DNA of 64,000 nt from Mycoplasmatota bacterium (GTDB lineage: Bacteria; Bacillota_I; Bacilli_A; RF39; UBA660). The stretch lies in the NCBI GenBank assembly GCA_022771205.1, contig JALFCF010000003.1, positions 200,085 to 264,084 on the forward strand, written 5' to 3'. Under the pieces are notes generated by a model that did not search any database, was not told where the DNA came from, and saw nothing but the letters and a program-made list of their open reading frames with translations. Position numbers and translations under genes: made by a program. Below, in pieces: positions 1 to 22,002 of the stretch; position 1 is the first letter of the stretch; each line of letters opens with the position of its first letter.

Positions 1-1
1 T

Positions 2-814
2 GAACAAGTAATGAAAGACAAGTACATTCCAAATGATATAATAATGGATAAAACTACTGATATATTATTGATTACTGGACCCAACATGGCCGGAAAATCA
101 ACATATATGAGACAATGTGCAATTACAGTAATTATGGCTCAAATGGGATGCTTTGTTCCATGCAAAAGCTGTATAATACCAATCTTTGACAAAATATTTA
201 CAAGAATAGGTGCAAGTGATGACTTAGTAAGTGGCGAATCTACTTTTATGGTAGAAATGAAAGAAGCAAATAATGCCATCAGTGAAGCCACAGAAAATAG
301 TCTAATATTATTTGATGAACTAGGTAGAGGTACAGCAACATATGATGGAATGAGCCTAGCCCAAGCGATATTGGAATATATTCATGATAAAATAAAAGCT
401 AAGACTATGTTCTCAACTCATTACCATGAATTAACATCTTTAGAAAAAGATTTAAAACATCTAAAAAACGTACATGTATCAGCAATAGAAAAAGAAGGAC
501 AAATTACTTTCTTACACAAAGTTAAAAATGGAGCAGTAGATAAAAGTTATGGTATTCATGTTGCAAGTCTTGCACATCTACCAGAATCTCTAATTAAAAG
601 AGCTGATGAGATATTAAATATCTATGAAAAGAAAAATATAAAAAAAGAAACATTTACTCAAACTTCTTTATTTGAATTAACAGAAAGTGAAATTGAGCCA
701 AAGAAAAACGAAATAGAAGAAAAAATAAAATCAATTAATCCATTAGAAATGACTCCGATGGAAGCTTTAAACTATCTATATGAATTAAAAAAAGAGGCAA
801 ATAGAAAGGAATAA
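2..814 (+). CDS. mutS: DNA mismatch repair protein MutS, C-terminal part (5' end outside window)
   Basis: Walker [44 protein letters not shown]; frame is open to the window edge. Confidence 0.97.
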
Positions 815-818
815 AATT

Positions 819-1220
819 ATGAAAAATAGAAGTGAATTAAGAGAAGTAATTATGAAAGTAATTTATCAAACATACATATTAGATAAAACAAAAAATAACT
901 ATGATGTTGATGAATTAATAAAAGAACAATTAGAAGTAGAAAATGATTATGTAAATACTTGCGTTAAAGGAATTATTGCAAATCAAAAAGAAATTAATAA
1001 ATTAGCTAATAAGCATATGAATAATTGGACTATTGATCGCTTAAATAAAGTAGATCAAGCTATTATTTCATTAGGAATATATGAACTTGTTTATACAGAT
1101 ACACCAAGCATTGTTGCAATTAACGAAGCAATTGAACTTTCTAAAAAATATTCAGAAGAAGCTGTAACTAAAATGATAAATGGTATATTAGACAAGATCT
1201 ATCATGAAGAAGAAAAGTAG
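819..1220 (+). CDS. nusB: transcription antitermination factor NusB
   Basis: NRSELRE N-terminus, NWTIDRL, AINEAIELSKKY, INGILDKI. Confidence 0.95.
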   Translation: MKNRSELREVIMKVIYQTYILDKTKNNYDVDELIKEQLEVENDYVNTCVKGIIANQKEINKLANKHMNNWTIDRLNKVDQAIISLGIYELVYTDTPSIVAINEAIELSKKYSEEAVTKMINGILDKIYHEEEK

Positions 1221-1232
1221 AAGGGAATTATT

Positions 1233-2486
1233 ATGAACGATAAATATATCACAGTAACTCAATTAACACGATATATTAAATATAAAATAGATAATGATGT
1301 TAACTTAAACGAAGTGTTTTTAAAAGGAGAAATATCTAATTTTAAAGCACATAGTAGAGGACATTTCTACTTCACTTTAAAAGATGAAGGTTCAAGAATA
1401 AATGCCATCATGTTTGCATCTAGTACCAAGAAAATAAAATTCACTCCTCAAGATGGAATGAAAGTATTGGTAACAGGGAAAATAAGTGTTTTTGAAGCAA
1501 ACGGTGGTTATCAAATATATGTAAATGATATGTTAGAAGATGGAGTAGGGAATTTATATATTGCGTTTGAACAGTTAAAAAAGAAATTAGAACAAGAAGG
1601 CCTATTTAAAAAAGAATATAAAAAAGAAATTCCTAAAATTCCAACAAGAGTTGGAGTAGTAACAGCACCAACTGGAGCTGCTATTAAAGATATCATATCA
1701 ACTATAAAAAGAAGATGGCCACTGGCTGAAGTTATTCTTTTCCCATCTCTTGTGCAAGGAGAAAACGCAAAAGAAGATATTGTAAAACAAATTGAAAGAG
1801 CAAAAGATTATGATTTAGATACATTGATAGTAGGTCGTGGTGGAGGATCAATCGAAGATTTATGGCCATTTAATGAAGAAATGGTTGCTAGAAGTATATT
1901 TGCATGTGACATACCCGTAATTAGTGCTGTAGGGCATGAAATCGACTTTACAATTGCGGATTTCGTTGCCGACTTACGTGCACCAACACCTACAGGAGCA
2001 GCAGAATTAGCCGTTCCACAAAAAGCAGATGTCGAGAACTATTTAAATCAATTGAAAATACGATTAAATAAAGCTATGCAACATAAAATTAATATTAATA
2101 CTCAAAAATTAGAAGAAATAAAAAGTAGATATATTTTTCAAAATCCTATTGCCATATACCAAGCAAAAGAATTACAGTTTGATAGCATCTTAGATAGATT
2201 AAAATATACTGGCAAAAATATAATAGCTCAAAAAGAAAAGAAATATATATCTATTATGAGTTCTTATATTTTTCAAAATCCTAAAAAACTGACAGAAATA
2301 AAGCAAAACAAATATTTACAACTAATTTCAAAACTAGAAACACTAAGTCCATTACTAACAATCCAAAGAGGATATTCTATGACAAAAAAGAATGGTAAAG
2401 TAATAACTAGTACAAAAGAATTAAAAGCAAAAGATAAAATAGAACTCACTTTAAAAGATGGAACCATCAATGCAGAAGTGATTTAA
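1233..2486 (+). CDS. xseA: exodeoxyribonuclease VII large subunit
   Basis: GEISNFK..SRGHFYFTLKD, GRGGGSIEDLWPFN, SAVGHEIDFT, RAPTPTGAAE. Confidence 0.97.
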   Translation: MNDKYITVTQLTRYIKYKIDNDVNLNEVFLKGEISNFKAHSRGHFYFTLKDEGSRINAIMFASSTKKIKFTPQDGMKVLVTGKISVFEANGGYQIYVNDMLEDGVGNLYIAFEQLKKKLEQEGLFKKEYKKEIPKIPTRVGVVTAPTGAAIKDIISTIKRRWPLAEVILFPSLVQGENAKEDIVKQIERAKDYDLDTLIVGRGGGSIEDLWPFNEEMVARSIFACDIPVISAVGHEIDFTIADFVADLRAPTPTGAAELAVPQKADVENYLNQLKIRLNKAMQHKININTQKLEEIKSRYIFQNPIAIYQAKELQFDSILDRLKYTGKNIIAQKEKKYISIMSSYIFQNPKKLTEIKQNKYLQLISKLETLSPLLTIQRGYSMTKKNGKVITSTKELKAKDKIELTLKDGTINAEVI

Positions 2487-2502
2487 AGAAGGAGAAATAA
2501 AA

Positions 2503-2736
2503 ATGGCAAAAACAGAAGAAAAAGAATTAACTTTTGAAGAAAGCTTAGAAAAATTAGAAAATATTGTAAAGAAACTAGAAAGTGGAGAAGTTCCATTAGA
2601 TGACGCAATTAATGAATTTAATACAGCTATGAAACTTGCAAAAAGCTGTGATGAAAAATTAAAATCTGCTGAAGAGGCTATTACTAAAATTGTAGCAGAT
2701 GATGGATCACTATCCAATTTTAATGTAGAAGAATAA
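2503..2736 (+). CDS. xseB: exodeoxyribonuclease VII small subunit
   Basis: TFEESLEKLENIVKKLESGEVPLDDAI; follows xseA; AAGGAG RBS. Confidence 0.96.
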   Translation: MAKTEEKELTFEESLEKLENIVKKLESGEVPLDDAINEFNTAMKLAKSCDEKLKSAEEAITKIVADDGSLSNFNVEE

Positions 2737-2757
2737 AAATAGAAAGTATAAAAACAT

Positions 2758-3234
2758 ATGGAAATCAATTATATAAATCTTGCAGGAGCAACACTTTATG
2801 GTATACCGCAAAAAAAGATAAATAAAATTAAAGAAAAAGCAAAGAAAACTTTTCCCAATCTAGATATTCCAAATATATATCAAGATGGTAGAAATGCAAT
2901 TGCAGCCATTAGTAAAAGTAGAGTAGTAGGCTGGATTGATTTTGAAACTAATTCAATGGTAGATCAAATTAACTCCATTGACATTTCACCAAACTTTTTA
3001 AATGAAAATATAATAGGAGACTTATTAGCTCAAGCCATTTATGAGTTAAAGAATGAAAAACCTATAATTAGTCTTCCATTAAATATGATAGAATATTTTC
3101 AACCAAGTATAGAAAAATATAATTGGGATTATACTTCTTACACTATATATCCAAACAACGAATACTATCGTAGTTATAACGAACATTCTTTACATAATAT
3201 AAAAGGAACACAAAAAAGCAAATCAAATAACTGA
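2758..3234 (+). CDS. hypothetical protein, possibly a degenerate GNAT fold
   Basis: 158-aa ORF; VVGWIDF..INSIDISPNF...IGDLLAQAI loosely resembles GNAT motif A. Confidence 0.55.
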   Translation: MEINYINLAGATLYGIPQKKINKIKEKAKKTFPNLDIPNIYQDGRNAIAAISKSRVVGWIDFETNSMVDQINSIDISPNFLNENIIGDLLAQAIYELKNEKPIISLPLNMIEYFQPSIEKYNWDYTSYTIYPNNEYYRSYNEHSLHNIKGTQKSKSNN

Positions 3235-3245
3235 TTTGCTTTTTT
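3212..3245. terminator. bidirectional intrinsic terminator
   Basis: AAAAAAGCAAATCA-AATAAC-TGATTTGCTTTTTT, perfect 14-bp inverted repeat between convergent ORFs. Confidence 0.85.
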
Positions 3246-3255
3246 ATTATTAAAT

Positions 3256-3480
3256 TTAACTTTCTTCAGTTTCTAATTTCATTTTTGTAAGCAATAACAA
3301 GGCTTTTTCAAACTCCTCATCATCTTCCAAAGGAAGTAATAAATCAGGATCATTAATATCTTCTTTACGAATCATCATATCACGTGGATCTTTTTCATTA
3401 GAAAGATACAAGTAAGAATCTATTTTAGTAACTAAAACATAATCTTTATTATCAAAAGAATAAATTTCTACTTCTTCCAT
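3256..3480 (-). CDS. small acidic protein, DUF1292-like
   Basis: FDNKDYVL..., LLPLEDDEEFEKAL C-terminal pattern. Confidence 0.6.
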   Translation of the reverse strand: MEEVEIYSFDNKDYVLVTKIDSYLYLSNEKDPRDMMIRKEDINDPDLLLPLEDDEEFEKALLLLTKMKLETEES

Positions 3481-4253
3481 TACTTACCACCCATACCTTT
3501 CACATCAGAATCTGTATTTACAGAACTAAAGTTAAACATTTCTTCAAGTTGATTATTAGTATCAATATTTTTACGAGCAATCTCTGCTTCAGTTTGTTGA
3601 ATAATATAATTTCTCACGTCTGACTTAAAGTCAGGATCTTGAATACCTTCCTCATATCTTTCTGGATTTAAACTCTGTACTAACTTATCAGGATCTTGGC
3701 CGAAAGAGTGTTCAACAATAGCAGCTAAATCATCTTGTGCATACGACTGATCCAATCTTGTTGCTAAAGTACCTAACACAATAGCAGAATCCCCACCATT
3801 TTCTAATATATTATCAATATCGTTGGCAACACCATATGTATCTATTTGCCAATTCTGTAAATCATCCGTTCTGGAAATATGATTAGAAACAGCCTGATTA
3901 GTAGCTACTACAACAGGATTTTGATCTAACATATCAATTTCATGATAAGCATCACCCAACGCTTGTGCTCCCGCAAATAATGCAGCACCTAATCCCATAG
4001 TAACAACTAATCCTTTCCAATGCCTTTTCAAAACACCAGATAAACTATTATCAACTTTCTTCCTACGCCTAGTTGCTTGAATTCTTTTAGAATTTAAAGA
4101 ATTTCTTCTAGCCATATTAATAAATACATCTTCATCATCACGAATTGTAGTTGATGAACGTTTACCATACACTGAAGAGTTCCTATAAGTAGATGTCTTT
4201 TGCATAAAATCAGAAATACCTAAACGTTCTTCATTATTATATGCCATATCCAT
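3480..4253 (-). CDS. hypothetical single-pass membrane protein
   Basis: GAGGTG RBS before ATG at 4253; basic N-terminal region, one hydrophobic helix, acidic C-terminal domain. Confidence 0.8.
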   Translation of the reverse strand: MDMAYNNEERLGISDFMQKTSTYRNSSVYGKRSSTTIRDDEDVFINMARRNSLNSKRIQATRRRKKVDNSLSGVLKRHWKGLVVTMGLGAALFAGAQALGDAYHEIDMLDQNPVVVATNQAVSNHISRTDDLQNWQIDTYGVANDIDNILENGGDSAIVLGTLATRLDQSYAQDDLAAIVEHSFGQDPDKLVQSLNPERYEEGIQDPDFKSDVRNYIIQQTEAEIARKNIDTNNQLEEMFNFSSVNTDSDVKGMGGK

Positions 4254-4389
4254 ATTCACCTCTAGTATAACTATAACAAACAATATTCAAAAAATCAAAA
4301 AAAATGTAAATTTTTAGTGTAAATGGTAAAAACTATTTAACATAATAAAAGTTAAAAAAATCAAACTATTAATGTAGTAAAGAAAAGAG

Positions 4390-5385
4390 GTGATTTTTTT
4401 GAAAATAAAAAACAAATTACTACTAACAATTCTTTTTCTAACAATAACTATTGTGCCCATAAACACCTTTGCTTATTCAAACTACGTAATAGCATCAGGT
4501 GAAACAATAGGAATAGAAGTAAATTCTAGTGGTGTATTAGTGGTAGGTTTTTATGAAGTTGATAATACTTACCTAGCAAAAGAAACAGGTTTTGAAATAG
4601 GAGATAAAATAATTAAAGTTAATGATACAAAAGTAAATAACATTTCTGAAATGGTCCAAGCTTTAAAGCAAAAATCCACACAAAAAAACACTTTTTCAGT
4701 CATAAGAAACAACAAGGAGCAAACATTAAAAATGGAGTTAAAAGAAGACGAAAATAAAATCTTAAAAACAGGTCTCTACGTTAAAGATCAAATCAATGGA
4801 ATCGGAACATTGACTTATATTGATCCAGAAACAAAAAGATTTGGAGCATTAGGACACGAAATAATAGAAACTACCACTGCTCAAAAATTTGAAATAAAAG
4901 ATGGTAAAATATTTCAAGCAAGTGTTTCAAACATTAAGAAAAGTAGAGATGGTGCAGCTGGAGAAAAAAATGCCACATATGACAAAACTACATCTGAGGG
5001 AGCAATAGATAATAATGATATAACGGGAATATATGGAACATATCAAGAAGAAATAAGTCATATGGAAACCTTAGAAGTAGGAACAGAAAAAGACATAAAA
5101 ACAGGTACAGCAACTATCAAAACAGTAATAGAAAATAACCAAGTAGAAGAATTTAATATTAATATAATCGCCATAGATCCCAACAGTAAGACTAAAAATA
5201 TTCTTTTTGAAATAACCGATGAAAGATTATTAAGTAAAACTGGGGGAGTAGTTCAAGGTATGAGTGGTTCTCCAATTATACAAAACAACAAAATAATTGG
5301 TGCTGTAAACTACGTTATAGTTAATGATACTAAAAAAGGCTATGGAATCTTTATTACCACAATGTTAGAAGAAGGTGAAAAATAA
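4390..5385 (+). CDS. spoIVB: stage IV sporulation protein B, S55 serine peptidase with PDZ domain
   Basis: GETIGI, GIGTLTYIDP...FGALGH, GGVVQGMSGSPIIQ catalytic Ser motif, GAVNYV, GYGIFI. Confidence 0.92.
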   Translation: MIFLKIKNKLLLTILFLTITIVPINTFAYSNYVIASGETIGIEVNSSGVLVVGFYEVDNTYLAKETGFEIGDKIIKVNDTKVNNISEMVQALKQKSTQKNTFSVIRNNKEQTLKMELKEDENKILKTGLYVKDQINGIGTLTYIDPETKRFGALGHEIIETTTAQKFEIKDGKIFQASVSNIKKSRDGAAGEKNATYDKTTSEGAIDNNDITGIYGTYQEEISHMETLEVGTEKDIKTGTATIKTVIENNQVEEFNINIIAIDPNSKTKNILFEITDERLLSKTGGVVQGMSGSPIIQNNKIIGAVNYVIVNDTKKGYGIFITTMLEEGEK

Positions 5386-5453
5386 AGAGAACACAATCTC
5401 TTTATTTTTTTTAAAATATATGTTAAAATATATAACCAATAGGGGATGAGGAT

Positions 5454-5756
5454 ATGAAAATATGGACAAAAGTAAAACTAACAGATAAGAATAAAGATGT
5501 AGAATTAATAGCGAAATCATTAACCAATTATCTATATGGATATGGACCAATTGTAAATATCTCAAGAAAATACCAAATAAAACCAGAAGATAGAAAAATA
5601 CTAGATCAATATACTGCCAATAGAATTGCTGGTATTCTTATGTTATATTTAGTAAAAGATACTAAAAGAATTAATGACATTGTAAATAAGTACAATATTC
5701 CAGAAGGAATAGTTCAAGAAATTATACCTGAATTAGAAGGTTATATAGAAAAATAA
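5454..5756 (+). CDS. hypothetical protein
   Basis: 100-aa ORF with GAGGA RBS and a terminator directly after it. Confidence 0.75.
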   Translation: MKIWTKVKLTDKNKDVELIAKSLTNYLYGYGPIVNISRKYQIKPEDRKILDQYTANRIAGILMLYLVKDTKRINDIVNKYNIPEGIVQEIIPELEGYIEK

Positions 5757-5782
5757 AAAGTCTCATTTCAGAGACTTTTTTT
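5755..5782. terminator. bidirectional intrinsic terminator
   Basis: AAAAAGTCTC-ATTTCA-GAGACTTTTT between convergent ORFs. Confidence 0.8.
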
Positions 5783-5867
5783 ATAAATATAATAAAACAC
5801 TTAAAAAAGATATAACCATTGCCACAATTAATATAATAGAAACAACTTTAACAACATTTTTATTCAT
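5781..5867 (-). CDS. 28-aa membrane microprotein, Prli42/DUF4044-like (not in ORF track)
   Basis: GAGGTG RBS 7 nt before ATG; translates to MNKNVVKVVSIILIVAMVISFLSVLLYL*; ends at the bidirectional terminator. Confidence 0.8.
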   Translation of the reverse strand: MNKNVVKVVSIILIVAMVISFLSVLLYL

Positions 5868-5972
5868 TTTTATACACCTCAACAACAATTATAAAATATA
5901 TGTTGAAAAAAGTAAAATGAATTTTTTCATAGTAACAAAATTCCAAGAATAAAAATATACAAAGGAGATACT

Positions 5973-6569
5973 ATGAAAAAATTAATATTAGAAATAAAAC
6001 AGAACAAATTATTATTACTACTAACCATATTAGCAATCGTATTTACCATAATAGGAATATTTTTTCCAGCCATACTAACAGAAGCTAACAAAGAATTAAT
6101 TAAAAATAACATTATTAAATTCATAAATAAAATAGATAATAACGAAATAAACTATCTAAGTGCATTGTTTTACAGCTCTTGGAACAACATTTTAGTAACT
6201 TTTATCTTATGGATCCTAGGAATATCGCTAATTGGAATACCATTCATTATAATTATATATATTTTTAAATGTTTCCTAACAGGTTTTTCTTTCACGAGTA
6301 TATTAATCACATATGGAGTAAAAGGAAGTATAACAGCTATGATTTATAGTATTCCAAATACTCTAAATTCCTTCGGAAGTTTATTATTAAGTTACTATGC
6401 ATTATCATTCTCCATCACTATTTATAAATGCATTTTCAAAAGAGAAAACAAAAATTGGTCTACTATAACAAAACAATATATAAAATTAGGCATATTCTTT
6501 CTATTATATACTATCATTATATCAGTAATAGAAAGCTATATCATTCCTAATATATTAAGATTATTATAA
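5973..6569 (+). CDS. spoIIM: stage II sporulation protein M-like membrane protein
   Basis: Multi-TM; WILGISLIGIPFI..., GFSF..I...YGVKG..., IESYIIP typical of SpoIIM. Confidence 0.8.
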   Translation: MKKLILEIKQNKLLLLLTILAIVFTIIGIFFPAILTEANKELIKNNIIKFINKIDNNEINYLSALFYSSWNNILVTFILWILGISLIGIPFIIIIYIFKCFLTGFSFTSILITYGVKGSITAMIYSIPNTLNSFGSLLLSYYALSFSITIYKCIFKRENKNWSTITKQYIKLGIFFLLYTIIISVIESYIIPNILRLL

Positions 6570-6633
6570 AAGATAAGACAATTATCTTTTTTCTTTTGTA
6601 ATTCTACGATATAATAAAACAAGGTGATATTAT

Positions 6634-7668
6634 ATGGAGAAAAAAACTGTTGTTATTGGAATGAGCGGTGGAGTAGATTCCTCTGTCGCTGCATGTTTAT
6701 TAAAAGATAAAGGATATAACGTTATTGGTGCAACCTTGGAACTATTAGATAATTATGATACAAAACAAGCCATAGAAGATGCCAAAATAATATGTCAAAA
6801 AATTGGTATCCCACACTATATATTTGATTTAAAAAAAGAATTTAAAGAAGAAATTATAAAAAACTTTATATCTTCATACCAACAAGGGAAAACTCCTAAT
6901 CCTTGTGTAGTATGTAATAGACTATTTAAATTCGGATATTTTTATCAAAAAGCACTAGAATTAGGCGCTGATTATATTGCAACAGGTCACTATGCTAGAA
7001 TAGAGAATAATCATTTAATGATGAGTCTAGCAGATGGTAAAGATCAATCCTACTTCCTATGTCAAATAAAAAAAGAAATACTACCTAAAATATTATTTCC
7101 ATTAAATCAATTTGCAAATAAAGAACAAATTCGCGAACTAGCAAGAAAATACGAATTACCAGTTAGTGAAAAAAAAGACAGTCAAGAAGTATGTTTTATT
7201 CCAAATGATGATTACAAAACATTCTTAAAGAAAAATGGTCAAAAAGAAATAAAAGGCAAAATAATATTAACAAACGGAACTGTACTAGGAAATCATACTG
7301 GACTATTTAATTATACAATAGGACAAAGAAAAGGCTTAAATATATCATATAAAGAGCCATTATACGTTATCAATTTAGATACAGAAAATAACAATTTAAT
7401 TGTTGGTAATAATAATGAACTATTCAAACAAGAACTAGTAGCAATAAATATGAATTATTTAATAGAAAAAGATGAATTTTTTCAACAAAAACTTTTTGCA
7501 AAAATACGTTCACGTGGTGATTTGGAAGAAATAGCTAGTATTGCAGAAGAAGGAAATGATTTAAAAGTTCAATTTAAAAACAAATTACGAGCAATTACCC
7601 CAGGACAATTAATAGTCTTCTATAATGAAAAAAAAGAATGTTTAGGTGGTGCATATATTGAAAAGTAA
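6634..7668 (+). CDS. mnmA: tRNA 2-thiouridine(34) synthase MnmA
   Basis: GMSGGVDSS, TPNPCVVCN, ATGHYA, KDQSYFL, DSQEVCF, YTIGQRKGL, AITPGQ. Confidence 0.97.
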   Translation: MEKKTVVIGMSGGVDSSVAACLLKDKGYNVIGATLELLDNYDTKQAIEDAKIICQKIGIPHYIFDLKKEFKEEIIKNFISSYQQGKTPNPCVVCNRLFKFGYFYQKALELGADYIATGHYARIENNHLMMSLADGKDQSYFLCQIKKEILPKILFPLNQFANKEQIRELARKYELPVSEKKDSQEVCFIPNDDYKTFLKKNGQKEIKGKIILTNGTVLGNHTGLFNYTIGQRKGLNISYKEPLYVINLDTENNNLIVGNNNELFKQELVAINMNYLIEKDEFFQQKLFAKIRSRGDLEEIASIAEEGNDLKVQFKNKLRAITPGQLIVFYNEKKECLGGAYIEK

Positions 7669-7709
7669 AATAGACAGTTATTCAAATAAAAAAATGTGTC
7701 AATTTACAC

Positions 7710-7738
7710 TTGATTATTATTTTCAATATGTCTATAAT
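7710..7738 (+). promoter_or_regulatory. sigma-A promoter of the HTH gene
   Basis: TTGATT-N17-TATAAT, followed by AGGAGG RBS. Confidence 0.7.
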
Positions 7739-7761
7739 TATATTAGGAGGGTAAATGAAAG

Positions 7762-8529
7762 ATGAAAGAATTAAACGTAGTATTAACAGAACTAGGAATT
7801 AGCAAAGTCAGATTAGCCAAATATTTAGGAGTTTCAAGACAAATGCTATATAATTATTTAGCAATAGAAAACCTAAATGATTGGCCAAAAGAAAAAGCAG
7901 CCAAATTACTAAGTTTATTAAATATAGAAAATATTGAAGAATTAAAAAATATAAAAATCAATGGAGAATATATCATTGAAGTAGAAACCAGATTAAAAGA
8001 AGGAGTAAAAGACTCTTCCAATAAAGAAGTAATAGCTGATTTAAAAGGATTTAATAAAAAAGAACAAGAACTATTATCAGATATTATTAATCTATTAAAA
8101 GAAAAACTAGCAACAGATAAAACAAAAGATACCTACAATACTTATTTATATTTGCACCACTTCCTACAATCTATGGAAACAACAGAAGAATTAAAATATA
8201 TTCTAGCGTATATGTCTAAATCTTTAGGTTTTACAGATCCAATGGAATTTGCTTTCAACAGTGATAAACAATTTATTTTTGAAAGTATTATGTTCAGTGC
8301 CATGACATTATATAATAATGGGGGAGCATCAAAAAATAAGATTAGTGAAACTCATAAACGTTTTGTTCAAGACATAGAACATAAAAAGGAAGAGAAGTTA
8401 TCAAGAACCCAAGAATTAAACTCTGCAAAAGTACAAGCATTAGCAGAATTAGGATATACAGAAATTAATGAAGATAACGCTAAAGAAGTATTTGAAAAAA
8501 TAGCAGAAATTCAATCTAGAAAAGTATAG
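7762..8529 (+). CDS. N-terminal helix-turn-helix protein of unknown function
   Basis: LTELGISKVRLAKYLGVSRQMLYNYL, XRE-like HTH; helical C-terminal region. Confidence 0.8.
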   Translation: MKELNVVLTELGISKVRLAKYLGVSRQMLYNYLAIENLNDWPKEKAAKLLSLLNIENIEELKNIKINGEYIIEVETRLKEGVKDSSNKEVIADLKGFNKKEQELLSDIINLLKEKLATDKTKDTYNTYLYLHHFLQSMETTEELKYILAYMSKSLGFTDPMEFAFNSDKQFIFESIMFSAMTLYNNGGASKNKISETHKRFVQDIEHKKEEKLSRTQELNSAKVQALAELGYTEINEDNAKEVFEKIAEIQSRKV

Positions 8530-8550
8530 ATTCCTTTTTGGAATCTTTTT
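8528..8550 (+). terminator. intrinsic terminator
   Basis: AGATTCC-TTTTT-GGAATCT followed by TTTT. Confidence 0.7.
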
Positions 8551-8646
8551 ATATACAAAAGAGCAGGGGAGAGAAGAATAAAACAGCAAAAGTATTCATA
8601 TCAAATTAATAAATCTAGAAAAGAAAAAAGAGTAGAAGTACTCTCA

Positions 8647-9033
8647 TTAAATTAATAAATCTAAATAAGTTAATATTCTATTAGTAACGTATAATTTTTC
8701 ATTAGGCATATTTGTATAAAACTTAATTAATTTTATATTAGCTTGATTCAATATTTTTTCAACCTTTAAATCACGAATAATTCTATCTTTTTTTAAGTGT
8801 GAGGAATCATTAATCTCAATAGCCAACAAAAGTTTATGGAAATTCTTATCAAATATACCAAAATCAATATTTCTAAATAATTCATTTACATATTTATGTT
8901 TAATATTTTTTTCTATAACACTGGCTAAGTTAACTTGAGGCTGAACTATAACATCATAATCACGTTCAATATCTTTTAAAATATCATAAAAATACTTCTC
9001 ATAATAACTCATAAATTCCTTTTGCTCATACAT
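8647..9033 (-). CDS. DUF2726 family (PD-(D/E)xK nuclease-like) protein
   Basis: VQPQVNLASVI, IDFGIFD, LAIEINDSSH, RDLKVEKILNQANIKLIKF. Confidence 0.8.
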   Translation of the reverse strand: MYEQKEFMSYYEKYFYDILKDIERDYDVIVQPQVNLASVIEKNIKHKYVNELFRNIDFGIFDKNFHKLLLAIEINDSSHLKKDRIIRDLKVEKILNQANIKLIKFYTNMPNEKLYVTNRILTYLDLLI

Positions 9034-9131
9034 AAATAAAAAACCCCTTTAAAAATTGAAGGACATATCTTACAATAAAATTATAAATTATAAAGAGTAA
9101 AAAGAAAAGTAAAATAAAAAGCATTTTAAGA

Positions 9132-9159
9132 AGTTAACATAATATCAATTATAGGAAGT
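9132..9159 (-). other. dif: chromosomal dif site (XerC/XerD recombination site at the replication terminus)
   Basis: Minus strand reads ACTTCCTATAA-TTGATA-TTATGTTAACT; the Firmicute dif consensus is ACTTCCTA(G/T)AA-TATATA-TTATGTAAACT. It lies at the +/- gene-orientation switch. Confidence 0.92.
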
Positions 9160-9487
9160 TGAATAATAATAAAACAAATTAAAAATATTTAGAAATTTCT
9201 ACTAAATATTTCTTATACAATTTAATAAATTAATTTCCCAAGTGTTCTGCACTTATTTTTTTATAAAAAATCTGTAAAATGAAATTTAAAAATTTATACA
9301 ATATATAAATTTATTTTTAGTTTAATTTAATTAATTATATTTTATTAATTATCATATCCATATACAACCATATTATATAAATAACTATATAATAGATATA
9401 CATGAATGATGTTATAATATTATGGGTAACATATACATGTATAATAATAGGTAGTCACTACCCCTACTATTTTAGTATTAAAAAAAT

Positions 9488-9626
9488 AGGGTGTTCTAAT
9501 TTGATTTGAATTCAAAAAAGATGGGTAATTGTTCGCCTCAATTCATTTGAGAGCATTCTAAATTAAATCGAAATATTAAAAGATGGATAATTATACGTCT
9601 CGATTTATTTAAGAACATTTTAAATT
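9488..9626. repeat. degenerate tandem repeat, 62-bp period, about 2.3 units
   Basis: 9520-9564 vs 9582-9626 match at 36/45 positions, with 8 of 9 mismatches being transitions; weaker match 9488-9519 vs 9550-9581. Confidence 0.75.
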
Positions 9627-9726
9627 GAAGATATATAGTTATCTATACAATTTATTTAATAAATTTTTAATATATGTGTATAAATATTAATTATCTGAAA
9701 ACACTAAGTTTATAGGAGGAGAAATA

Positions 9727-9891
9727 ATGAACAAAGGAACAATAAAATGTGATGTAGAAACATGCAAACATAACAATTGTGAAAATGGTTGTTGTGAATT
9801 AGATGAAATAAAAATCAGTTGTACATGCAATAACAATTGTTGTAAAAAAACAGAAGAAACAATCTGTCAAAGTTTTAAAAAAGCAAAGTAG
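9727..9891 (+). CDS. DUF1540-like cysteine-rich small protein (not in ORF track)
   Basis: AGGAGGAG RBS; MNKGTIKCDVETCKHNNCENGCCELDEIKISCTCNNNCCKKTEETICQSFKKAK*; IxCxVxxCxHN...C...I.I...T.C.SF pattern. Confidence 0.88.
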   Translation: MNKGTIKCDVETCKHNNCENGCCELDEIKISCTCNNNCCKKTEETICQSFKKAK

Positions 9892-9902
9892 GGGGGAGAC
9901 AA

Positions 9903-9931
9903 AAAAACTATGGAAAAAAACCATAGTTTTT
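9903..9931. terminator. bidirectional intrinsic terminator
   Basis: AAAAACTATGG-A7-CCATAGTTTTT between convergent genes. Confidence 0.8.
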
Positions 9932-10931: not shown

Positions 10932-12098
10932 TTACTCCAACTCATCTAAGCAACTTTTGCCAATAGGAGGCATCTCTACTTCAAAGTTATCAGCAATAGT
11001 TGCACCAATATCAGCTAAAGTATCAAAAGCATTCAATCTTTTAGGATTTAAAAAGTCTCTACTATACATAATAACAGGAACATTTTCTCTAGTATGATCA
11101 GTTCCAGGGAATGTAGGATCATTCCCATGATCTGCAGTAATAATCAATAAATCGCCCGTATCTAATTTATTTAAAATAATAGGAATCTCAACATCTAATT
11201 CTTCTAAAGCCCTACCATAACCCTCAACATCTCTAGTATGACCATACATACTATCAAAATCTGATAAATTAACCATGCAAAGTCCCGTAAAATTTTTATC
11301 TATAATATCAGTAAATTTATTAATAGCTTCTATATTATTATTAGCTTTCATCTGTTTATTGATACCTTGACCATCAAATATATCATTAATTTTACCAATC
11401 CCAATAACATTATATTTATTTTCAAGCAAACTATCTAAGACACTTTTTTCCGGCGGTTTCACAGAGTAATCACGCCTACCACTATGAACAAATTTATAAT
11501 GTCCTGGAGTCCCAGTAAAAGGTCGAGCAATGACTCTACCAACTCTCCATTCATCCTTAAGTGTTAATGCCCGAATTCTTTCACAATATTCATATAACGT
11601 TGAAACTGGAATACAATCCTCATGTGCAGCCACCTGTAAATCAGAATCAGCAGAAGTATAAATAATTAAAGAACCATAATTTTGTTGACGTTCCCCAAGT
11701 TCTTGTAAAATGGAATCATCTTGACAACATTTATTACCAATAACTCTACGACCAGTTACCTGTTCAATTCCATTTAAAATATCAAAAGTAAATCCCTGAT
11801 TAAAAGTCTTAAATGGAATATGATTAACAATTCCCATCATCTCATAATGTCCATTCAAACTATCTTTACCGGCATTTTTAGGTTTCGCAATAGTATAATA
11901 AGCATCAACATCTGAATTATCATTCATATTTAAAGTGTCTAAAAATCCAATCTTCTTTAAATTAGGAATAAACAAATCATATTTCTCCTTTACATGGCCT
12001 AATGTATTTGCTCCAGTATCTCCATAATTGATAGCATCAATCGCTTCACCAACACCCAAAGAATCCAAAACCATTAAAAATATACGTTTAAATTTCAT
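10932..12098 (-). CDS. deoB: phosphopentomutase
   Basis: RIFLMVLDSLGVG, GKDSLNGHYEMMG, VIARPFTG, DSMYGHTRD, ITADHGNDPT, GTDHTRE; ATG overlaps the xerD stop (ATGA). Confidence 0.96.
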   Translation of the reverse strand: MKFKRIFLMVLDSLGVGEAIDAINYGDTGANTLGHVKEKYDLFIPNLKKIGFLDTLNMNDNSDVDAYYTIAKPKNAGKDSLNGHYEMMGIVNHIPFKTFNQGFTFDILNGIEQVTGRRVIGNKCCQDDSILQELGERQQNYGSLIIYTSADSDLQVAAHEDCIPVSTLYEYCERIRALTLKDEWRVGRVIARPFTGTPGHYKFVHSGRRDYSVKPPEKSVLDSLLENKYNVIGIGKINDIFDGQGINKQMKANNNIEAINKFTDIIDKNFTGLCMVNLSDFDSMYGHTRDVEGYGRALEELDVEIPIILNKLDTGDLLIITADHGNDPTFPGTDHTRENVPVIMYSRDFLNPKRLNAFDTLADIGATIADNFEVEMPPIGKSCLDELE

Positions 12099-13003
12099 TC
12101 TTTCCAATCTCCTTTATGCTCCCTAGGATGATATTTCTTATAATCTGCTTCAACTTTTTCATCACTAACATGTGTATAAATCTTAGTAGTAGAAATATCA
12201 GAATGCCCTAACATTTCCTGAATACTTCTTAAATCAGCGCCACGGCTTAATAAATGAGTTGCAAAACTATGCCGCAATGTATGTGGCGAAACATCAGGAT
12301 TTAATCCTTTATCCAAAAGCAATTGCTTTAATATCTTAAAAAAACCCTGCCTAGTTATTTGTTTTCCATGATTATTTAAAAATAAACTATCTTCTTGCCG
12401 ATTATTTTTAATTAATAATCCACGATGTTCCAAATACAACTTTAAATAATAAATTCCATACTCACCAATTGGAATTTCTCTTTCTTTTCTACCTTTACCC
12501 ATAATACGAATCATTCCATTTTCCAAATCTATTTGATTCATATTAAGACTCACTAACTCACTCACTCGAAGTCCTGCACCATACATCAATTCTAACATAG
12601 CTTTATTACGATAGTCAAATGGCGTAATTAGAGAAATATTAAGAAGCAAGTCTACATCCTCAACACTTAGAGTACGAGGAAGCCTTTTTTGCAGTTTAGG
12701 GCGAGAAATAAACATGCTAACATCATCTTTCACAATATTTTCTTTTATTAAATATCTATGAAAATTTTTAATTACAGTTAAATTATGAGCAAGAGTACTA
12801 GTACTTTCACTTTGTCCTCGTTTTTTTAAAAATTCTTTAATATTATCACTACTAATTTCTTTAACATTACTAATACCTTTAGATTTTAAAAATTGTAGAT
12901 AAATATCTAAATCATTCTGATAAGATTTAACAGTTTGATCAGTAAGTCCTTTTTCAAAAAGAGAAAACTGTATAAAATCTGTAATAGCATCTTCTATCTT
13001 CAT
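12095..13003 (-). CDS. xerD: tyrosine recombinase XerD (RipX-like)
   Basis: YRNKAMLELMYGAGLRVSEL, GKGRKER, VSPHTLRHSFATHLL.RGADLRSIQEMLGH, TTKIYTHV; ripX-drm synteny as in Bacillus. Confidence 0.92.
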   Translation of the reverse strand: MKIEDAITDFIQFSLFEKGLTDQTVKSYQNDLDIYLQFLKSKGISNVKEISSDNIKEFLKKRGQSESTSTLAHNLTVIKNFHRYLIKENIVKDDVSMFISRPKLQKRLPRTLSVEDVDLLLNISLITPFDYRNKAMLELMYGAGLRVSELVSLNMNQIDLENGMIRIMGKGRKEREIPIGEYGIYYLKLYLEHRGLLIKNNRQEDSLFLNNHGKQITRQGFFKILKQLLLDKGLNPDVSPHTLRHSFATHLLSRGADLRSIQEMLGHSDISTTKIYTHVSDEKVEADYKKYHPREHKGDWKE

Positions 13004-13129
13004 AGTACCACCTAATAATAAGTATAAGCTAAAGTGCAAAAAAAGACAACTAAGGGCATTTGAAAAACATCATAATTTATTATATAATAATTAAGCAATT
13101 ATTAAATCTTTAATAAAGTTGGTGATAAT

Positions 13130-14350
13130 ATGAATAAACCTTTAGCACAAAAACTGGCTCCAACAACATTATCTGAAGTAATAGGCCAAAAGCATCTTCT
13201 AGGTGAAGGTAAAATATTAACAAATCTAGTAAAAAATAAGAAATTATTTTCTATGATATTATATGGAAAACCAGGAATAGGAAAAACATCAATTGCAAAC
13301 GCTATTGCTAATGACTTAGGAGAACGATATCGTTTTTTAAATGCCACAGTAAATACAAAAAAAGATTTAGATATTGTAATAGAAGAAGCAAAGATGTATG
13401 ATGGCATGATTTTAATTATGGATGAAATACATAGGCTAAATAAAGATAAACAAGATATCTTATTACCACAATTAGAAAGTGGATTAATTACTTTAATTGG
13501 TATGACAACTTCAAATCCATATCATGCTATTAATCCTGCAATACGTAGTAGATGCCAACTATTTGAATTAAAAGAATTAGAAATAAATGATATTAAAGAA
13601 GGCCTTAAAAAAGCCATAAAACACCCTGATTTAAAAGGAATAGAAATTGATGATAAAAGTATCGAACTTATTGCAAAACTCTCTGGAAACGACTTAAGAT
13701 ACGCTTACAATCTATTAGAAGTAGCATACTACTCTACCGATGATAAAAAAATAACAGAAGAAAAAATAAGAAAAATAAATAATAAACCTGTATTCTTTTC
13801 AGATAAAAACGGCGAAGGGCATTACGATGTATTAAGTGGTTTACAAAAATCAATTCGTGGAAGTGACGTAAACGCTGCCCTACACTATTTAGCCAGACTA
13901 GTAGTAGAAGGAGACTTAGATTCAATTTATAGAAGATTATCAGTTATTGCCTATGAAGATATAGGATTAGCAAACCCAGCTATAGGGCCAAGACTAGATG
14001 CCGCTATTAATGCTGCAGAAAGAACTGGATTACCAGAAGCAAGAATTCCATTAGGAACTATTGTCGCAGAAATGGCACTATCACCAAAAAGTAACACTGC
14101 TCATATCGCTTTTGATGAGGCTATTGCTGATATAGAAAAAGGAAATGTAGGAACGATCCCAAAACATATAAAAACCAATTCACCTGATTACAAATATCCC
14201 CATGATTATAAAGGAGCCTACGTAGTCCAACAATACCTACCAGATAAATTAAAAAATAAAAAATATTATCACCCAAAAGATATTGGATATGAAAAAAACA
14301 TAAAAGAAATTTATGAACGTTTAGAAAAAATAAAAAACCAAGGAAAATAA
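13130..14350 (+). CDS. rarA: replication-associated recombination protein A
   Basis: GQKHL, YGKPGIGKTS, DEIHR, TTSNP, SGLQKSIRGSD, EDIGLANP, YKYPHDY. Confidence 0.96.
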   Translation: MNKPLAQKLAPTTLSEVIGQKHLLGEGKILTNLVKNKKLFSMILYGKPGIGKTSIANAIANDLGERYRFLNATVNTKKDLDIVIEEAKMYDGMILIMDEIHRLNKDKQDILLPQLESGLITLIGMTTSNPYHAINPAIRSRCQLFELKELEINDIKEGLKKAIKHPDLKGIEIDDKSIELIAKLSGNDLRYAYNLLEVAYYSTDDKKITEEKIRKINNKPVFFSDKNGEGHYDVLSGLQKSIRGSDVNAALHYLARLVVEGDLDSIYRRLSVIAYEDIGLANPAIGPRLDAAINAAERTGLPEARIPLGTIVAEMALSPKSNTAHIAFDEAIADIEKGNVGTIPKHIKTNSPDYKYPHDYKGAYVVQQYLPDKLKNKKYYHPKDIGYEKNIKEIYERLEKIKNQGK

Positions 14351-14370
14351 TCCTTGTTTTTTTTATACAA

Positions 14371-14847
14371 TTATTTAGCTTGCAATAATGCAAAAAGACT
14401 TGTAACAATAGATATAGCTAAATACAACATAATATTGATAAAAAATAATGGTATAGAAAAATCAAGATCACGAAAGAAACAAAAATAAGTAGCCAAAAAA
14501 ATAAAAGATCTAATAATAATAGTAAATATACATATCACAACAAATTTATTTAAAAAATTCTTCTTATTAGACTCTCTCAATAACAAAAATTCCAAAGAAT
14601 GATCTTTATCATTCGTAAAAAATGTATAAGTAATATATACATGACAAGATATTTGAAATAACATCCACAATATCTTAACACCATCAAAATAAGGAGGAAT
14701 ACCAACTAACTTTGTAAAAGAAGAAATATCCATAGGTAACATTACCATATATAGAAAAATCATAAAATATAAAAATAGGTAAACAATAAACAGTAAGAAA
14801 TATTGTTTTTTTATCGCTTCAAATAAACTAAAAAAATTATACTTCAC
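14371..14847 (-). CDS. membrane protein, about 4 TM (ABC permease-like)
   Basis: Hydrophobic ORF overlapping the 3' end of the ABC ATPase gene. Confidence 0.7.
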   Translation of the reverse strand: MKYNFFSLFEAIKKQYFLLFIVYLFLYFMIFLYMVMLPMDISSFTKLVGIPPYFDGVKILWMLFQISCHVYITYTFFTNDKDHSLEFLLLRESNKKNFLNKFVVICIFTIIIRSFIFLATYFCFFRDLDFSIPLFFINIMLYLAISIVTSLFALLQAK

Positions 14848-15475
14848 CTTTTCTTACTTCTCCTGCATCAAAATAATAAATAAAATCTGACAGATTATCT
14901 AAATCTTCTTTTATATGAGTAGATATAATGATAAGTTTCCCTTTTTTCTTTTCTTCTTTTAAAATCTTACTTATTTTTGTAACACTATTAGCTTCTATCC
15001 CATTAAATGGTTCATCCAAAATAATTATATCTGGATCTTCCATTAATACTTGAGCAATTCCTAATTTTTGTTTCATTCCTAATGAATATTCAGAATACTT
15101 TTTATCTTTTTCTTCGTATAAATTAACATTTTTTAATGCTTCTTCTATTTCTGCTTTACCAATTTTATTTTGAATCTTAGCTAACAACTCTAAATTCTCA
15201 TAACCAGTTAATTCTGGAAAGAAGTTTGGCTTTTCAATTAAAGCTCTCATATTTAACAAATGCAAATCATCTTTATCATACTTTTTATCATCAAATAAAA
15301 CTTCTCCACTACTAGGCTTATAAAGACCACATAAGATTTTTAAAAAGATACTTTTACCAGCGCCATTTCTACCACTTAATCCATAGATATGACCACTTTC
15401 AAAAGAAGCATCAACATCTCTTAAAACTAAATTATTTCTAAACTTTTTACTAATATTTTTAACTTCTATTTTCAT
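14837..15475 (-). CDS. ABC transporter ATP-binding protein
   Basis: GRNGAGKS Walker A, YSLGMKQKL signature, IIILDEP Walker B, STH switch. Confidence 0.95.
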   Translation of the reverse strand: MKIEVKNISKKFRNNLVLRDVDASFESGHIYGLSGRNGAGKSIFLKILCGLYKPSSGEVLFDDKKYDKDDLHLLNMRALIEKPNFFPELTGYENLELLAKIQNKIGKAEIEEALKNVNLYEEKDKKYSEYSLGMKQKLGIAQVLMEDPDIIILDEPFNGIEANSVTKISKILKEEKKKGKLIIISTHIKEDLDNLSDFIYYFDAGEVRKGEV

Positions 15476-15483
15476 AATTCCTC

Positions 15484-16383
15484 CTAATTATTAGCTTCAC
15501 ATGATATTACAAATCTCTCTTTGTTTCGGTAAGCTAAATAAACTCCTAAAAAAGATAAAAGAAGAAAACTAATATTTACAATAAATAATGCTGGAATACC
15601 AAATAAATCATTAAATCCAAAAATATCCATAATATTAAATATCATTCCAAGTTCTGTATGAAATACTCTCTGTAAAATAAGTACTCTAACAACAGTCTCC
15701 AAAAATATTTCAATTGAAAAAAATACAATATAAGATAAGATAATACAAGGAATAAATTTCTTTTGAAATCTCGCTACAATTAAAGAAATATTTACATAAA
15801 TTGTAGATACAATTAAAACATTTAATAAATAAAGGAAAATAAACAATACCGGATGATAAATTAACTTTGTACTCCACCTCATACCATAAGCAATAGAATA
15901 TTCAGGAGTAAGTGTATACGTAAATAATAAAGGAAGCATCAATATAATAGCGAGTACTGGTAATATCCAAAGATATTTATAAGCAGTAAATAACATTTTT
16001 TTAATAAAACTTTTATAACTTTCCCGTAAATTAGTATTCAAAATATATTTATTTCTTAACATTCTGCAAATTTGAATCATTGATGGAATAATAACAATTA
16101 AAAATAGAAAATAACCAAACGATTGTACATGCCATATTAATACTTCTGAAAATTCAGAATAAAAATCTGGTTCAATCACTTCATTCGTAAGTATTTCATG
16201 ACAAAATTTCTTTTCTCCTTCATCTGTAATTGTTTTTGTCTTACATCGTTCTATATAATTATTTCTAGTTTCAGCTATTCCCTGATTATTCTTTATAACC
16301 TGATAGTCACCATAAAGAAAAATAGCACCAAATACCACCAAAATTACTATTACAACAACATTACGTCTCAAAAATTTTTTCAT
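15484..16383 (-). CDS. ABC-2-type permease-like membrane protein
   Basis: N-terminal TM, external loop, about 5-6 further TMs; GAGGTG RBS before MKKFLRR. Confidence 0.75.
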   Translation of the reverse strand: MKKFLRRNVVVIVILVVFGAIFLYGDYQVIKNNQGIAETRNNYIERCKTKTITDEGEKKFCHEILTNEVIEPDFYSEFSEVLIWHVQSFGYFLFLIVIIPSMIQICRMLRNKYILNTNLRESYKSFIKKMLFTAYKYLWILPVLAIILMLPLLFTYTLTPEYSIAYGMRWSTKLIYHPVLFIFLYLLNVLIVSTIYVNISLIVARFQKKFIPCIILSYIVFFSIEIFLETVVRVLILQRVFHTELGMIFNIMDIFGFNDLFGIPALFIVNISFLLLSFLGVYLAYRNKERFVISCEANN

Positions 16384-17060: not shown

Positions 17061-17999
17061 TTATGAATTTTCTAAAATAAATAATTCTATTAAAAAATTA
17101 CCATCAACATCACTTGATTTAATTTTTAAATCCATATCCGCAAGTTTTCTTAATATTGTTCTAAGTTCTTGCTCACTATAATATCTAGTTAACTCTCTAG
17201 TCTTTTGAATTCTATATGGTTTTTCTCCCAAGATATCCGCAATTTCTTGATTTAAATTAGTTCTTTTTTCAAGTATTTTAACTTGATACATAATCAAAAA
17301 TTGACTAGCAAGTAATCCAATTAAAGGTATCGCATCAATAGAATACTCTTCTAACTCATGATACTTATCTAAAGCACCTTTTTTATCTTTAGAAGCAAGA
17401 ACCCTAACAAAATCAAATGTTAAATCTCTAGAATCTCCTAATTTTTTAATAACTAACTCATCTACATCTTGAAGAGAAATCTTTTTAGTATCTATTCGAT
17501 ATAATTTTAATTTCTCACATTCCTGATGAATTCTGCCAATATCTTCTAAAGTATAACTAACAAGAGCTCTGACAACACCATTTTCTAATGTATATCCTTG
17601 TAATTCTTGCTTTGTAAAATCTACTGCATTAGTAGTAAGACTAATATACTCTAAATTCTTTTTTAATTCCTTAGTTATCTTCTTAGTATTATTTAATTTT
17701 CTAGCAGTTACAATAACTAAAATAGTATCTAGAGGATCTTTAAAATATTTCAAAAAATGTTCAATATCTTTTTCATTACCTTCAACAGTTAGAGATTCAA
17801 TATTAGAAATAATAATAACTTTTTTTTCTGAAAACAATCCATAAGTATCCAAATCTTCTAAAGCATTTGATAGAGGAACTTCCTCCATATCATAAGAATG
17901 AACAGGAGAATCTTTAAACAAACATTTATCTATTAATTCCTCTATCTTCATAGAAACTAGATAATTATCTTCACTTTCTAATAAATAATTATTCTTCAT
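17061..17999 (-). CDS. holA: DNA polymerase III delta subunit
   Basis: YLL.SEDNYL, DLDTYGLFSEKKVII, ECEKLKLY, TFDFVR, LADMDLKIKS. Confidence 0.88.
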   Translation of the reverse strand: MKNNYLLESEDNYLVSMKIEELIDKCLFKDSPVHSYDMEEVPLSNALEDLDTYGLFSEKKVIIISNIESLTVEGNEKDIEHFLKYFKDPLDTILVIVTARKLNNTKKITKELKKNLEYISLTTNAVDFTKQELQGYTLENGVVRALVSYTLEDIGRIHQECEKLKLYRIDTKKISLQDVDELVIKKLGDSRDLTFDFVRVLASKDKKGALDKYHELEEYSIDAIPLIGLLASQFLIMYQVKILEKRTNLNQEIADILGEKPYRIQKTRELTRYYSEQELRTILRKLADMDLKIKSSDVDGNFLIELFILENS

Positions 18000-20682: not shown

Positions 20683-20683
20683 A

Positions 20684-21250
20684 CTACTTATCTCCTTCTT
20701 GTTTTTCAATATCTTCTAGTATCTCTATTAACCTCTTTTTATAATTTTCTAAACTTCCATTGTTAAATAAGAAATAATCCGCATAAGCAATAGGTCCACC
20801 CTTAGCCAAATTTTCGATTTCAGCCACATCTCGATAAATAATGTCTTCTCGAGAAAAAGGTCTTTCTATTCGACTACCAACACGTTTATAACGTAACTCT
20901 TTATCAACAACCACACAAATAAGTTTAAGTTCAGGAAAACGTTCAATCAAATATTTATACTCATACCAAGAATATAAACCATCTAGAACAACATTACCTT
21001 TTTCCAAAGCTTCTCTTATATCTGGTTCTAAGAACTTAGCATAACATTCAGGCCCATGTTCACGTCTTAAATTTTCACGAAACTCCTTTTCACTTTTACC
21101 GTCTGGCGTTCTTTCAATACCAGCTTCAGCCATAAGTTTATAAGTAATTCCACCAAAATATAATTTAGTCCAACCTTTACCTTCTAAATAATCAGTAGCA
21201 ATACTTTTACCACTACCACTCATTCCAACAACAGCAACTAATTTATTCAT
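20684..21250 (-). CDS. P-loop NMP-kinase-fold protein (archaeal/CPR-type dephospho-CoA-kinase-like, UPF0200-like)
   Basis: VGMSGSGKS, VVLDGLYSWYE, RYKR..SR..RP, ADYFLFNNGS. Confidence 0.75.
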   Translation of the reverse strand: MNKLVAVVGMSGSGKSIATDYLEGKGWTKLYFGGITYKLMAEAGIERTPDGKSEKEFRENLRREHGPECYAKFLEPDIREALEKGNVVLDGLYSWYEYKYLIERFPELKLICVVVDKELRYKRVGSRIERPFSREDIIYRDVAEIENLAKGGPIAYADYFLFNNGSLENYKKRLIEILEDIEKQEGDK

Positions 21251-21819: not shown

Positions 21820-21995
21820 ATAAAAGACCTAACTAGGAGTGCATAATACACGGTACCATCCTAGTTTGGTCTTAATTTAGATAACGGCAAGGCCGATAAA
21901 ACTCATAAAGTAGCTTCTTAAAGAATAAGCAAACTATTTTCACCATCCATAGTCTCTCTAAACACTTTAATTCTTTAATACTTATCTTTAATCCT
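21820..21995 (-). ncRNA. T-box riboswitch, Ala specifier (GCU)
   Basis: Minus strand shows stem I with AGAGA and GGTGA boxes, TTAAAGAAT/ATTCTTTAA helix, specifier loop GAA-GCT-A (21912-21914), T-box bulge TGGTACC (21852-21858), and terminator AAGACC..CTAGGA/TCCTAG..GGTCTT with T-tract; alaS is downstream. Confidence 0.92.
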
Positions 21996-22002
21996 CGTTT
22001 TA

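Follow-up and report, generated by a model that had tools for sequence, protein, structure and literature searches.

The chromosomal dif sites that stand closest to the one described here are those of Bacillus subtilis (ACTTCCTAGAATATATATTATGTAAACT, the site of CodV and RipX) and Staphylococcus aureus (ACTTCCTATAATATATATTATGTAAACT, a predicted site), both listed by Kono et al. (2011) among their supplementary data. A review of the known cases describes two other kinds of system, XerS/difSL of streptococci and lactococci and XerH/difH of Helicobacter and Campylobacter, with atypical sites (31 bp in the case of difSL) and one dedicated recombinase beside the site. There are also elements without an integrase that borrow the host Xer (IMEX), such as the phages CTXphi, VGJphi, and TLCphi at dif1 of Vibrio cholerae, and this way of integrating has so far been elucidated for Vibrio, Neisseria, and Enterobacter.

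The window (the whole stretch of DNA that was analyzed, 64 kb) holds a 28-mer that we read, with a probability of about 0.87, as a genuine chromosomal dif that is a target for Xer dimer resolution and a phage attachment site, and that lies in the terminus zone away from the skew shift point. As the first-pass annotation had supposed, the lineage is little characterized, its host being known from metagenome-assembled genomes only, and the site would provide a terminus-zone landmark and an Xer target for a very prevalent uncultured gut lineage. Taken on its own, the dif is an ordinary kind of site and its annotation is routine, and the interest lies mainly in the population data around it, namely the phages found at dif and the occurrence of dif in either orientation (see below).

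Sequence and Layout of the Site

The site and its parts are as follows:

9132..9159, minus strand: dif site, 28 bp (from its sequence, its conservation, and the prophage junctions in the same-species loci L010 and L180)
9159 to 9149, minus strand: ACTTCCTATAA, XerC-type arm, so labelled by analogy
9148 to 9143, minus strand: TTGATA, the 6-bp core
9142 to 9132, minus strand: TTATGTTAACT, XerD-type arm, so labelled by analogy
9125..9131, minus strand: extension outside the XerD-type arm, TCTTAAA here and TCTATAT in the family consensus, with TCT only common to both

The plus strand at 9132-9159 is AGTTAACATAATATCAATTATAGGAAGT and its reverse complement is ACTTCCTATAA-TTGATA-TTATGTTAACT, letter by letter what had been reported for the minus strand, that is, two 11-bp arms with partial dyad symmetry about a 6-bp core, the layout of classical XerCD/dif sites. 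The first-pass annotation had also stated that the arms differ by zero to one change from those of S. aureus and B. subtilis and that the core differs from their TATATA, and this agrees with the sequences that Kono et al. (2011) list in their supplement. Compared with S. aureus, the left arm shows no change and the right arm one (21 of 22 arm positions identical), while B. subtilis shows one change per arm (20 of 22), both sites being likewise 28 bp long and divided 11-6-11. The core of the site in the window (TTGATA) differs from theirs (TATATA). The right arm agrees at 10 of 11 positions with TTATGTTAAAT, the XerD arm of Escherichia coli. A TTGATA core is also found in the predicted dif of Burkholderia mallei chromosome I (Kono et al., 2011, supplement), the arms of which (AATGTCGATAA and TTATGTCAAAT) differ from those of the window; the phylum is unrelated and the common core is probably a coincidence. 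The literature searched contained no paper with this TTGATA-core site, which is not proof of novelty.

The proposed uniqueness of the site was borne out within the 64-kb window, where the 28-mer occurs a single time even with up to three mismatches allowed, and none of 100 dinucleotide-preserving shuffles of the sequence produced a match. A degenerate dif pattern with three mismatches gave three further matches in the window, which is the chance level, and no second half-site with two or fewer mismatches was found anywhere in it. Same-species contigs likewise carry one dif each, except where a prophage adds a hybrid copy. Since more than 20 independent same-species metagenome contigs run colinearly through the site with 99.3-100% identity, the window is not chimeric at dif, a possibility that the first-pass annotation had raised against itself. 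Outside the XerD-type arm, the major base of the extension reaches frequencies of 67-88% over its seven positions (51 contexts). Either TCT or TCC also directly follows the phage-borne copies of the site, and this extension falls within the 21-nt direct repeat that bounds the L010 prophage (see below).

Neighboring Genes and the Linked XerD

The GC content is 25-35% over the window and 23-25% in the region around the site, which is surrounded by these genes:

left of the site, plus strand: nusB and xseA (ORF map and Pfam)
4390-5385, plus strand: spoIVB
5973-6569, plus strand: spoIIM
6634-7668, plus strand: mnmA
7762..8529, plus strand: HTH255, a 255-aa helix-turn-helix protein
8530..9929: convergence zone of gene orientation, between the end of the last plus-strand gene (8529) and the start of the minus-strand block (9930)
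8647-9033, minus strand: DUF2726 gene (Pfam)
9727-9891, plus strand: small DUF1540 gene (Pfam)
right of the site, between the DUF1540 gene and deoB: gene for 331 aa, without annotation
10932-12098, minus strand: deoB
12095..13003, minus strand: xerD, tyrosine recombinase of 302 aa from the ATG at 13003 (TIGR02225 and Pfam)

The convergence zone contains the DUF2726 and DUF1540 genes. The xerD reading frame as listed extends to a TTG at 13039, and the protein is called with 302 aa in same-species contigs. It scores as XerD (TIGR02225 recomb_XerD, 333.5 bits against a cut-off of 329.6) and has the Pfam domains Phage_integrase and Phage_int_SAM_1. Therefore the lineage encodes a XerD/RipX ortholog as B. 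subtilis does, although, unlike in B. subtilis and S. aureus, the gene is located just 3 kb from dif. Among the matches listed in the exact-arm scan described below, 24 of 36 related species have xerD at 2-5 kb from dif. No other tyrosine recombinase gene or xerC was detected within the 64-kb window, nor any rRNA.

The HTH255 gene is the constant neighbor of dif on its side. The protein has no match in Pfam, NCBIfam, or PDB, and its family comprises 6131 clusters, with 53-96% identity across the clade; the structure model (mean pLDDT 63) is confident only for about 80 N-terminal residues and too weak for a fold search. The exact MnmA, HTH255, and XerD proteins of the window are present on about 450-480 contigs. 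Two other features of the surroundings can be mentioned. The AT-rich spacer from dif to the DUF1540 gene holds two tandem copies of a 62-nt unit (9494-9617, 74% identical), and a minus-strand gene block with alaS (17989-20709) is preceded by a T-box leader (21832-22004, minus strand, 93.7 bits at a gathering score of 93).

Conservation in Related Loci

A first scan of species-representative genomes, with the exact arms and any core, gave at least 120 stretches in Bacilli, Mollicutes-like MAGs, Omnitrophota, Planctomycetes, and others. At least 36 low-GC gut MAG species among the matches listed (the species of the window not being one of them) had the same 28-mer, TTGATA core included, and in most of these 36 it is found between the HTH255 homolog and deoB-xerD. 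Because such a scan selects for the arms and thus biases the estimate, conservation was measured again on a set independent of the site, 80 metagenome loci gathered by HTH255 homology alone, 49 of them with at least 1.5 kb downstream. A dif-like site follows the HTH255 stop codon in 41 of these 49 loci, mostly within 31-700 bp, and a hybrid junction is found in two more. Over 51 distinct contexts found through HTH255, identity to the window was 94% within the 28-mer vs. 38-40% in the 60-nt flanks, with arm positions 3-5, 8-11, and 18-23 invariant. The same site thus appears between the same housekeeping genes (mnmA/HTH255 on one side, deoB/xerD on the other) in dozens of species.

Several of the low-GC loci bear the label Muribaculaceae and look mis-binned. 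In one MAG so labelled (L090, 3250-3432) there are two identical dif copies 155 bp apart, which we set aside as a probable scaffolding artifact, the copies flanking a run of N.

Filamentous Prophages Inserted at dif

The dif of the window is unoccupied, as it is in most same-species contigs. In other contigs small inoviruses are inserted at exactly this place:

L010, 12121-17779: prophage, a 5,631-bp insert between the DUF2726 and DUF1540 genes
L180, 9693-15271: prophage of 5.55 kb, a different inovirus, in the species of the window
L171, L177, and L179, about 11060-16170: inoviruses at dif
L187, L192, and L045: further cases of inoviruses at dif

The L010 contig is 99.4-99.7% identical to the window. 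Its insert encodes a small HTH regulator, a 69-aa coat-like membrane protein, a Zot/pI-type ATPase, a putative adsorption protein of 527 aa, and a rolling-circle Rep. The left junction reads AGTTAACATAA-TATCAA-GTAAAAAAACT, so that the XerD-type arm and the core are retained and the other arm is replaced, and the right junction is an intact dif overlapping the last codons of Rep; L180 has junctions of the same type. In a sister species (HTH255 86% identical), seven of ten distinct arrangements are empty and three carry different inoviruses of 4.6-5.1 kb, with a left junction made of ACTTCCTATAA-TTGATA followed by divergent sequence and a right junction that is again an intact dif. Overall, the prophages at dif are 4.6-5.6 kb long and encode Zot and a Rep of the REP_ORF2-G2P or Rep_OBD type, several different phages using the same site. 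In each, one junction is hybrid and the other intact, with the end of the Rep reading frame passing through the intact dif, and no recombinase was found among their ORFs. This combination of an integrase-less element with a hybrid and an intact dif, typical of IMEX attachment sites, was seen in L010, L180, L171, L177, L179, L187, and L192. Because one and the same species has both occupied and empty alleles, with the crossover confined to one arm plus the core, natural Xer recombination takes place at this site, evidence that is indirect but specific. One further observation concerns L045 (4440-4560), where a second dif-like half-site (GACATA-TTATGTTAAAC) lies five bases upstream of an intact dif with a TATATA core, inside the end of the inovirus Rep gene; this locus stops short of the other prophage junction.

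The resemblance to dif1 of V. cholerae is close, since there too the integrated elements are small filamentous phages that have Zot and a rolling-circle Rep but no integrase, they leave one hybrid junction and one regenerated intact dif, and occupied and empty alleles coexist. Unlike that case, the hosts here are low-GC Bacilli of the Gram-positive type and the Rep gene overlaps the attachment site with its 3' end. In the literature searched, IMEX elements were not described for Gram-positive hosts or outside Proteobacteria, which again is not proof of novelty, and IMG/VR contained neither relatives of the L010 phage Rep nor free circular attachment-site junctions. These data indicate that Xer-exploiting phage integration also operates in low-GC gut bacteria of the Gram-positive type, and that it uses both half-site polarities.

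Orientation of dif and Half-Site Polarity

Between the same flanking genes, dif occurs in either orientation depending on the species. Among the matches listed of the pattern-selected loci, 16 have the orientation of the window and about 36 the inverted one, and in the set found through HTH255 there are 28 sites one way and 13 the other. Comparison of L013-L129 and L180-L259 with the window indicates that what moves is limited to the 28-mer with a few bases beside it (about 31-35 nt). The order of the phages relative to the flanks is constant (HTH255, hybrid junction, phage genes ending in Rep, intact dif, deoB side), and on the phage coding strand the core always comes after the conserved arm. 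From this constant orientation it follows that a window-like dif has XerD-arm phages and an opposite dif XerC-arm phages. The phages of the window's species indeed retain the XerD-type arm and the core while the XerC-type arm diverges, and those of the sister species with the opposite dif orientation are of the XerC-arm type. According to the review of known cases, TLCphi, GGI, and EludIMEX-1 keep the XerC arm and the core, the opposite arm from that kept in the window's species, where the XerD-arm type would be unusual, provided that the arm assignment is right. We lean, if only slightly, toward the view that the dif of this clade is a frequent attachment site for diverse integrase-less inoviruses with XerD- or XerC-type half-sites according to the direction of dif. 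The presence of dif in either orientation across species agrees with phages using either half-site.

Alternative Explanations of the Site

The region has a GC content of only 23-25% and TTGATA resembles a -35 box, so the 28-mer could be thought of as an AT-rich near-palindrome arising by chance or as a promoter-like sequence, but the shuffled sequences, the conservation within the 28-mer as against its flanks, and recombination junctions located exactly at the core leave this reading with almost no weight; the conservation and junction data already refute it. It is also very improbable that the 28-mer, instead of being the chromosomal dif, belongs to a mobile element as its Xer site or was left behind as a prophage junction. 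Mobile elements do make dif a hot spot in the relatives, and a poorly characterized DUF2726 gene adjoins the 28-mer, but the window has no hybrid half-site nearby, the flanks are the same housekeeping genes in dozens of species, and the arrangement is empty in most same-species contigs. More substance can be found in the idea of a single recombinase, the linked XerD-like protein, acting at dif as in XerS/difSL or XerH/difH, where the gene is linked to the site as it is in the window. The proximity of xerD across the clade, the lack of a second recombinase gene within 64 kb, and the retention of either half-site by the phages would all fit, but the arms are not alike, and they correspond to the canonical XerC and XerD arms of two species that work with two recombinases, B. 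subtilis and S. aureus. Moreover, the protein falls far under the cut-off of the XerS model (127.8 bits against 267). In contrast to those systems, the site has the canonical 28 bp with a 6-bp core and not the 31 bp of difSL, the linked protein is a XerD equivalog, and neither an atypical site nor an adjacent XerS or XerH gene is found here. The deoB-xerD-spoIIM neighborhood is the ancestral gene order in Bacilli, and thus the linkage of xerD and dif may be incidental. On these grounds we regard a single-recombinase system as quite unlikely.

Judging from its arms, the nearby xerD, its conservation, and the prophage junctions, the 28-mer is very likely a functional dif of the XerCD type. In the mechanism that we favor, the host Xer tyrosine recombinases would add a crossover at dif so that chromosome dimers become monomers before division, with XerD coming from the gene 3 kb away and a XerC/CodV partner presumably encoded elsewhere. 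In the population dif acts, in addition, as the attachment site of small filamentous phages that lack an integrase and borrow the host Xer. We infer the pairing of each protein with its arm, a dependence on a translocase of the FtsK/SpoIIIE type, and the dimer-resolution function at dif.

Position Relative to the Replication Terminus

The first-pass annotation had taken dif as the mark of the replication terminus inside the window, with converging genes and, as a prediction, a GC-skew inversion near 9.1 kb. The convergence stands: among ORFs of at least 100 aa there are nine on the plus strand and three on the minus strand to the left of the site, and four and 43, respectively, to the right, the orientation being as described and the change falling at 8.5-9.9 kb. 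To examine the skew over a longer left arm, this was extended by 9.2 kb with L166 (1-9182), giving 18.3 kb left of the site. The raw GC skew is then +0.04 to the left (18.3 kb) and -0.27 to the right, with a slope change near 9.8 kb, which again favors a terminus that coincides with dif. The third codon positions speak against it. On the plus strand the GC3 skew is negative for both gene orientations and on both sides, with -0.255 for left plus-strand genes (n = 15), -0.465 for left minus-strand ORFs (n = 6), -0.538 for right minus-strand genes (n = 43), and -0.36 for right plus-strand genes (n = 4). The AT skew agrees, the plus strand being A-rich on both sides of dif, and neither GC3 nor AT3 skew inverts between -18 and +55 kb, the polarity being the same across the 73 kb analyzed. 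The raw inversion is an effect of gene orientation, because the purine-rich coding strand switches sides there. A dif that coincides with the replication terminus and with the skew inversion at about 9.1 kb is therefore unlikely, although it is less improbable than any of the alternatives weighed above, and of the earlier claim the gene convergence and the raw slope change remain while the inversion does not. The locus illustrates clearly how raw GC skew and gene convergence can point to a terminus for which the skew resolved by codon position gives no confirmation.

By composition, forks moving from right to left would pass dif and continue for at least 18 kb, which would place the long-term fork-meeting point at least 18 kb to the left and dif within the terminus zone, not at the skew shift point. 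Likewise, the dif of B. subtilis is situated several degrees away from terC, the fork-arrest site. On the left arm (window 1-9131 and L166 1-9182), the orientation of the genes does not agree with the mutational skew for at least 18 kb. There, 15 of 21 genes are on the plus strand, head-on to replication by composition, and these plus-strand genes have a lagging-strand type of third-codon composition (GC3 skew -0.255 on the coding strand, each single gene being about zero or below).

Related species with the same gene order have skews that are negative on both sides, positive on both sides, or inverted at dif, and none of them presents an origin-like skew pattern at dif. Averaged over the two sides, the GC3 skew extends from about -0.44 to +0.37 among these species, many of which have values near zero. 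A local sign that varies is what a terminus zone should show if its fork-meeting point drifts, and it agrees with the conclusion of Kono et al. that termination occurs near dif and not at dif. With regard to motifs that could guide toward dif, GAAGAAG points to it in a ratio of 29:5 right of the site and 4:1 left of it, numbers that are confounded with the coding strand and inseparable from gene orientation, and the SRS of B. subtilis and the KOPS of E. coli are almost absent from the window. The most strand-skewed 7- and 8-mers were discarded as candidates, being dominated by coding bias.

Other dif-Like Elements

A scan of IMG/VR with the core and the XerD arm retrieved 35 contigs, 23 of them from one family of tailed phages (L131-L165, 24-32% GC) that encode a tail fiber, an endolysin, Erf, a DnaD-like initiator, and DnaB. 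Their site has the form ACTTCTTGAAA-TTGATA-TTATGTTAACT, is located just upstream of a cro-like gene and the DnaD-like initiator, and is bracketed by an inverted repeat of 7-8 bp with compensatory changes (e.g., L133, 11275-11330). When relatives were collected by protein search, two of 32 had a dif-like site, and no tailed phage of this family was seen integrated at dif among the loci examined. By a back-of-envelope estimate, tens of chance occurrences of the bare 17-mer are plausible in a collection of the size of IMG/VR, and we treat the dif-like site of these phages as a lead only.

A different case is a 1.8-kb element beside dif in L129 (1805-3700), which includes part of a phage DnaD-like gene. 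Direct repeats of about 75 bp, ending at the XerC arm plus core, enclose it, and the second copy of the site reads ACTTCCTATAA-TTGATA-TAAATGATATT. Its appearance is that of an Xer-dependent element, either tandem or decayed.
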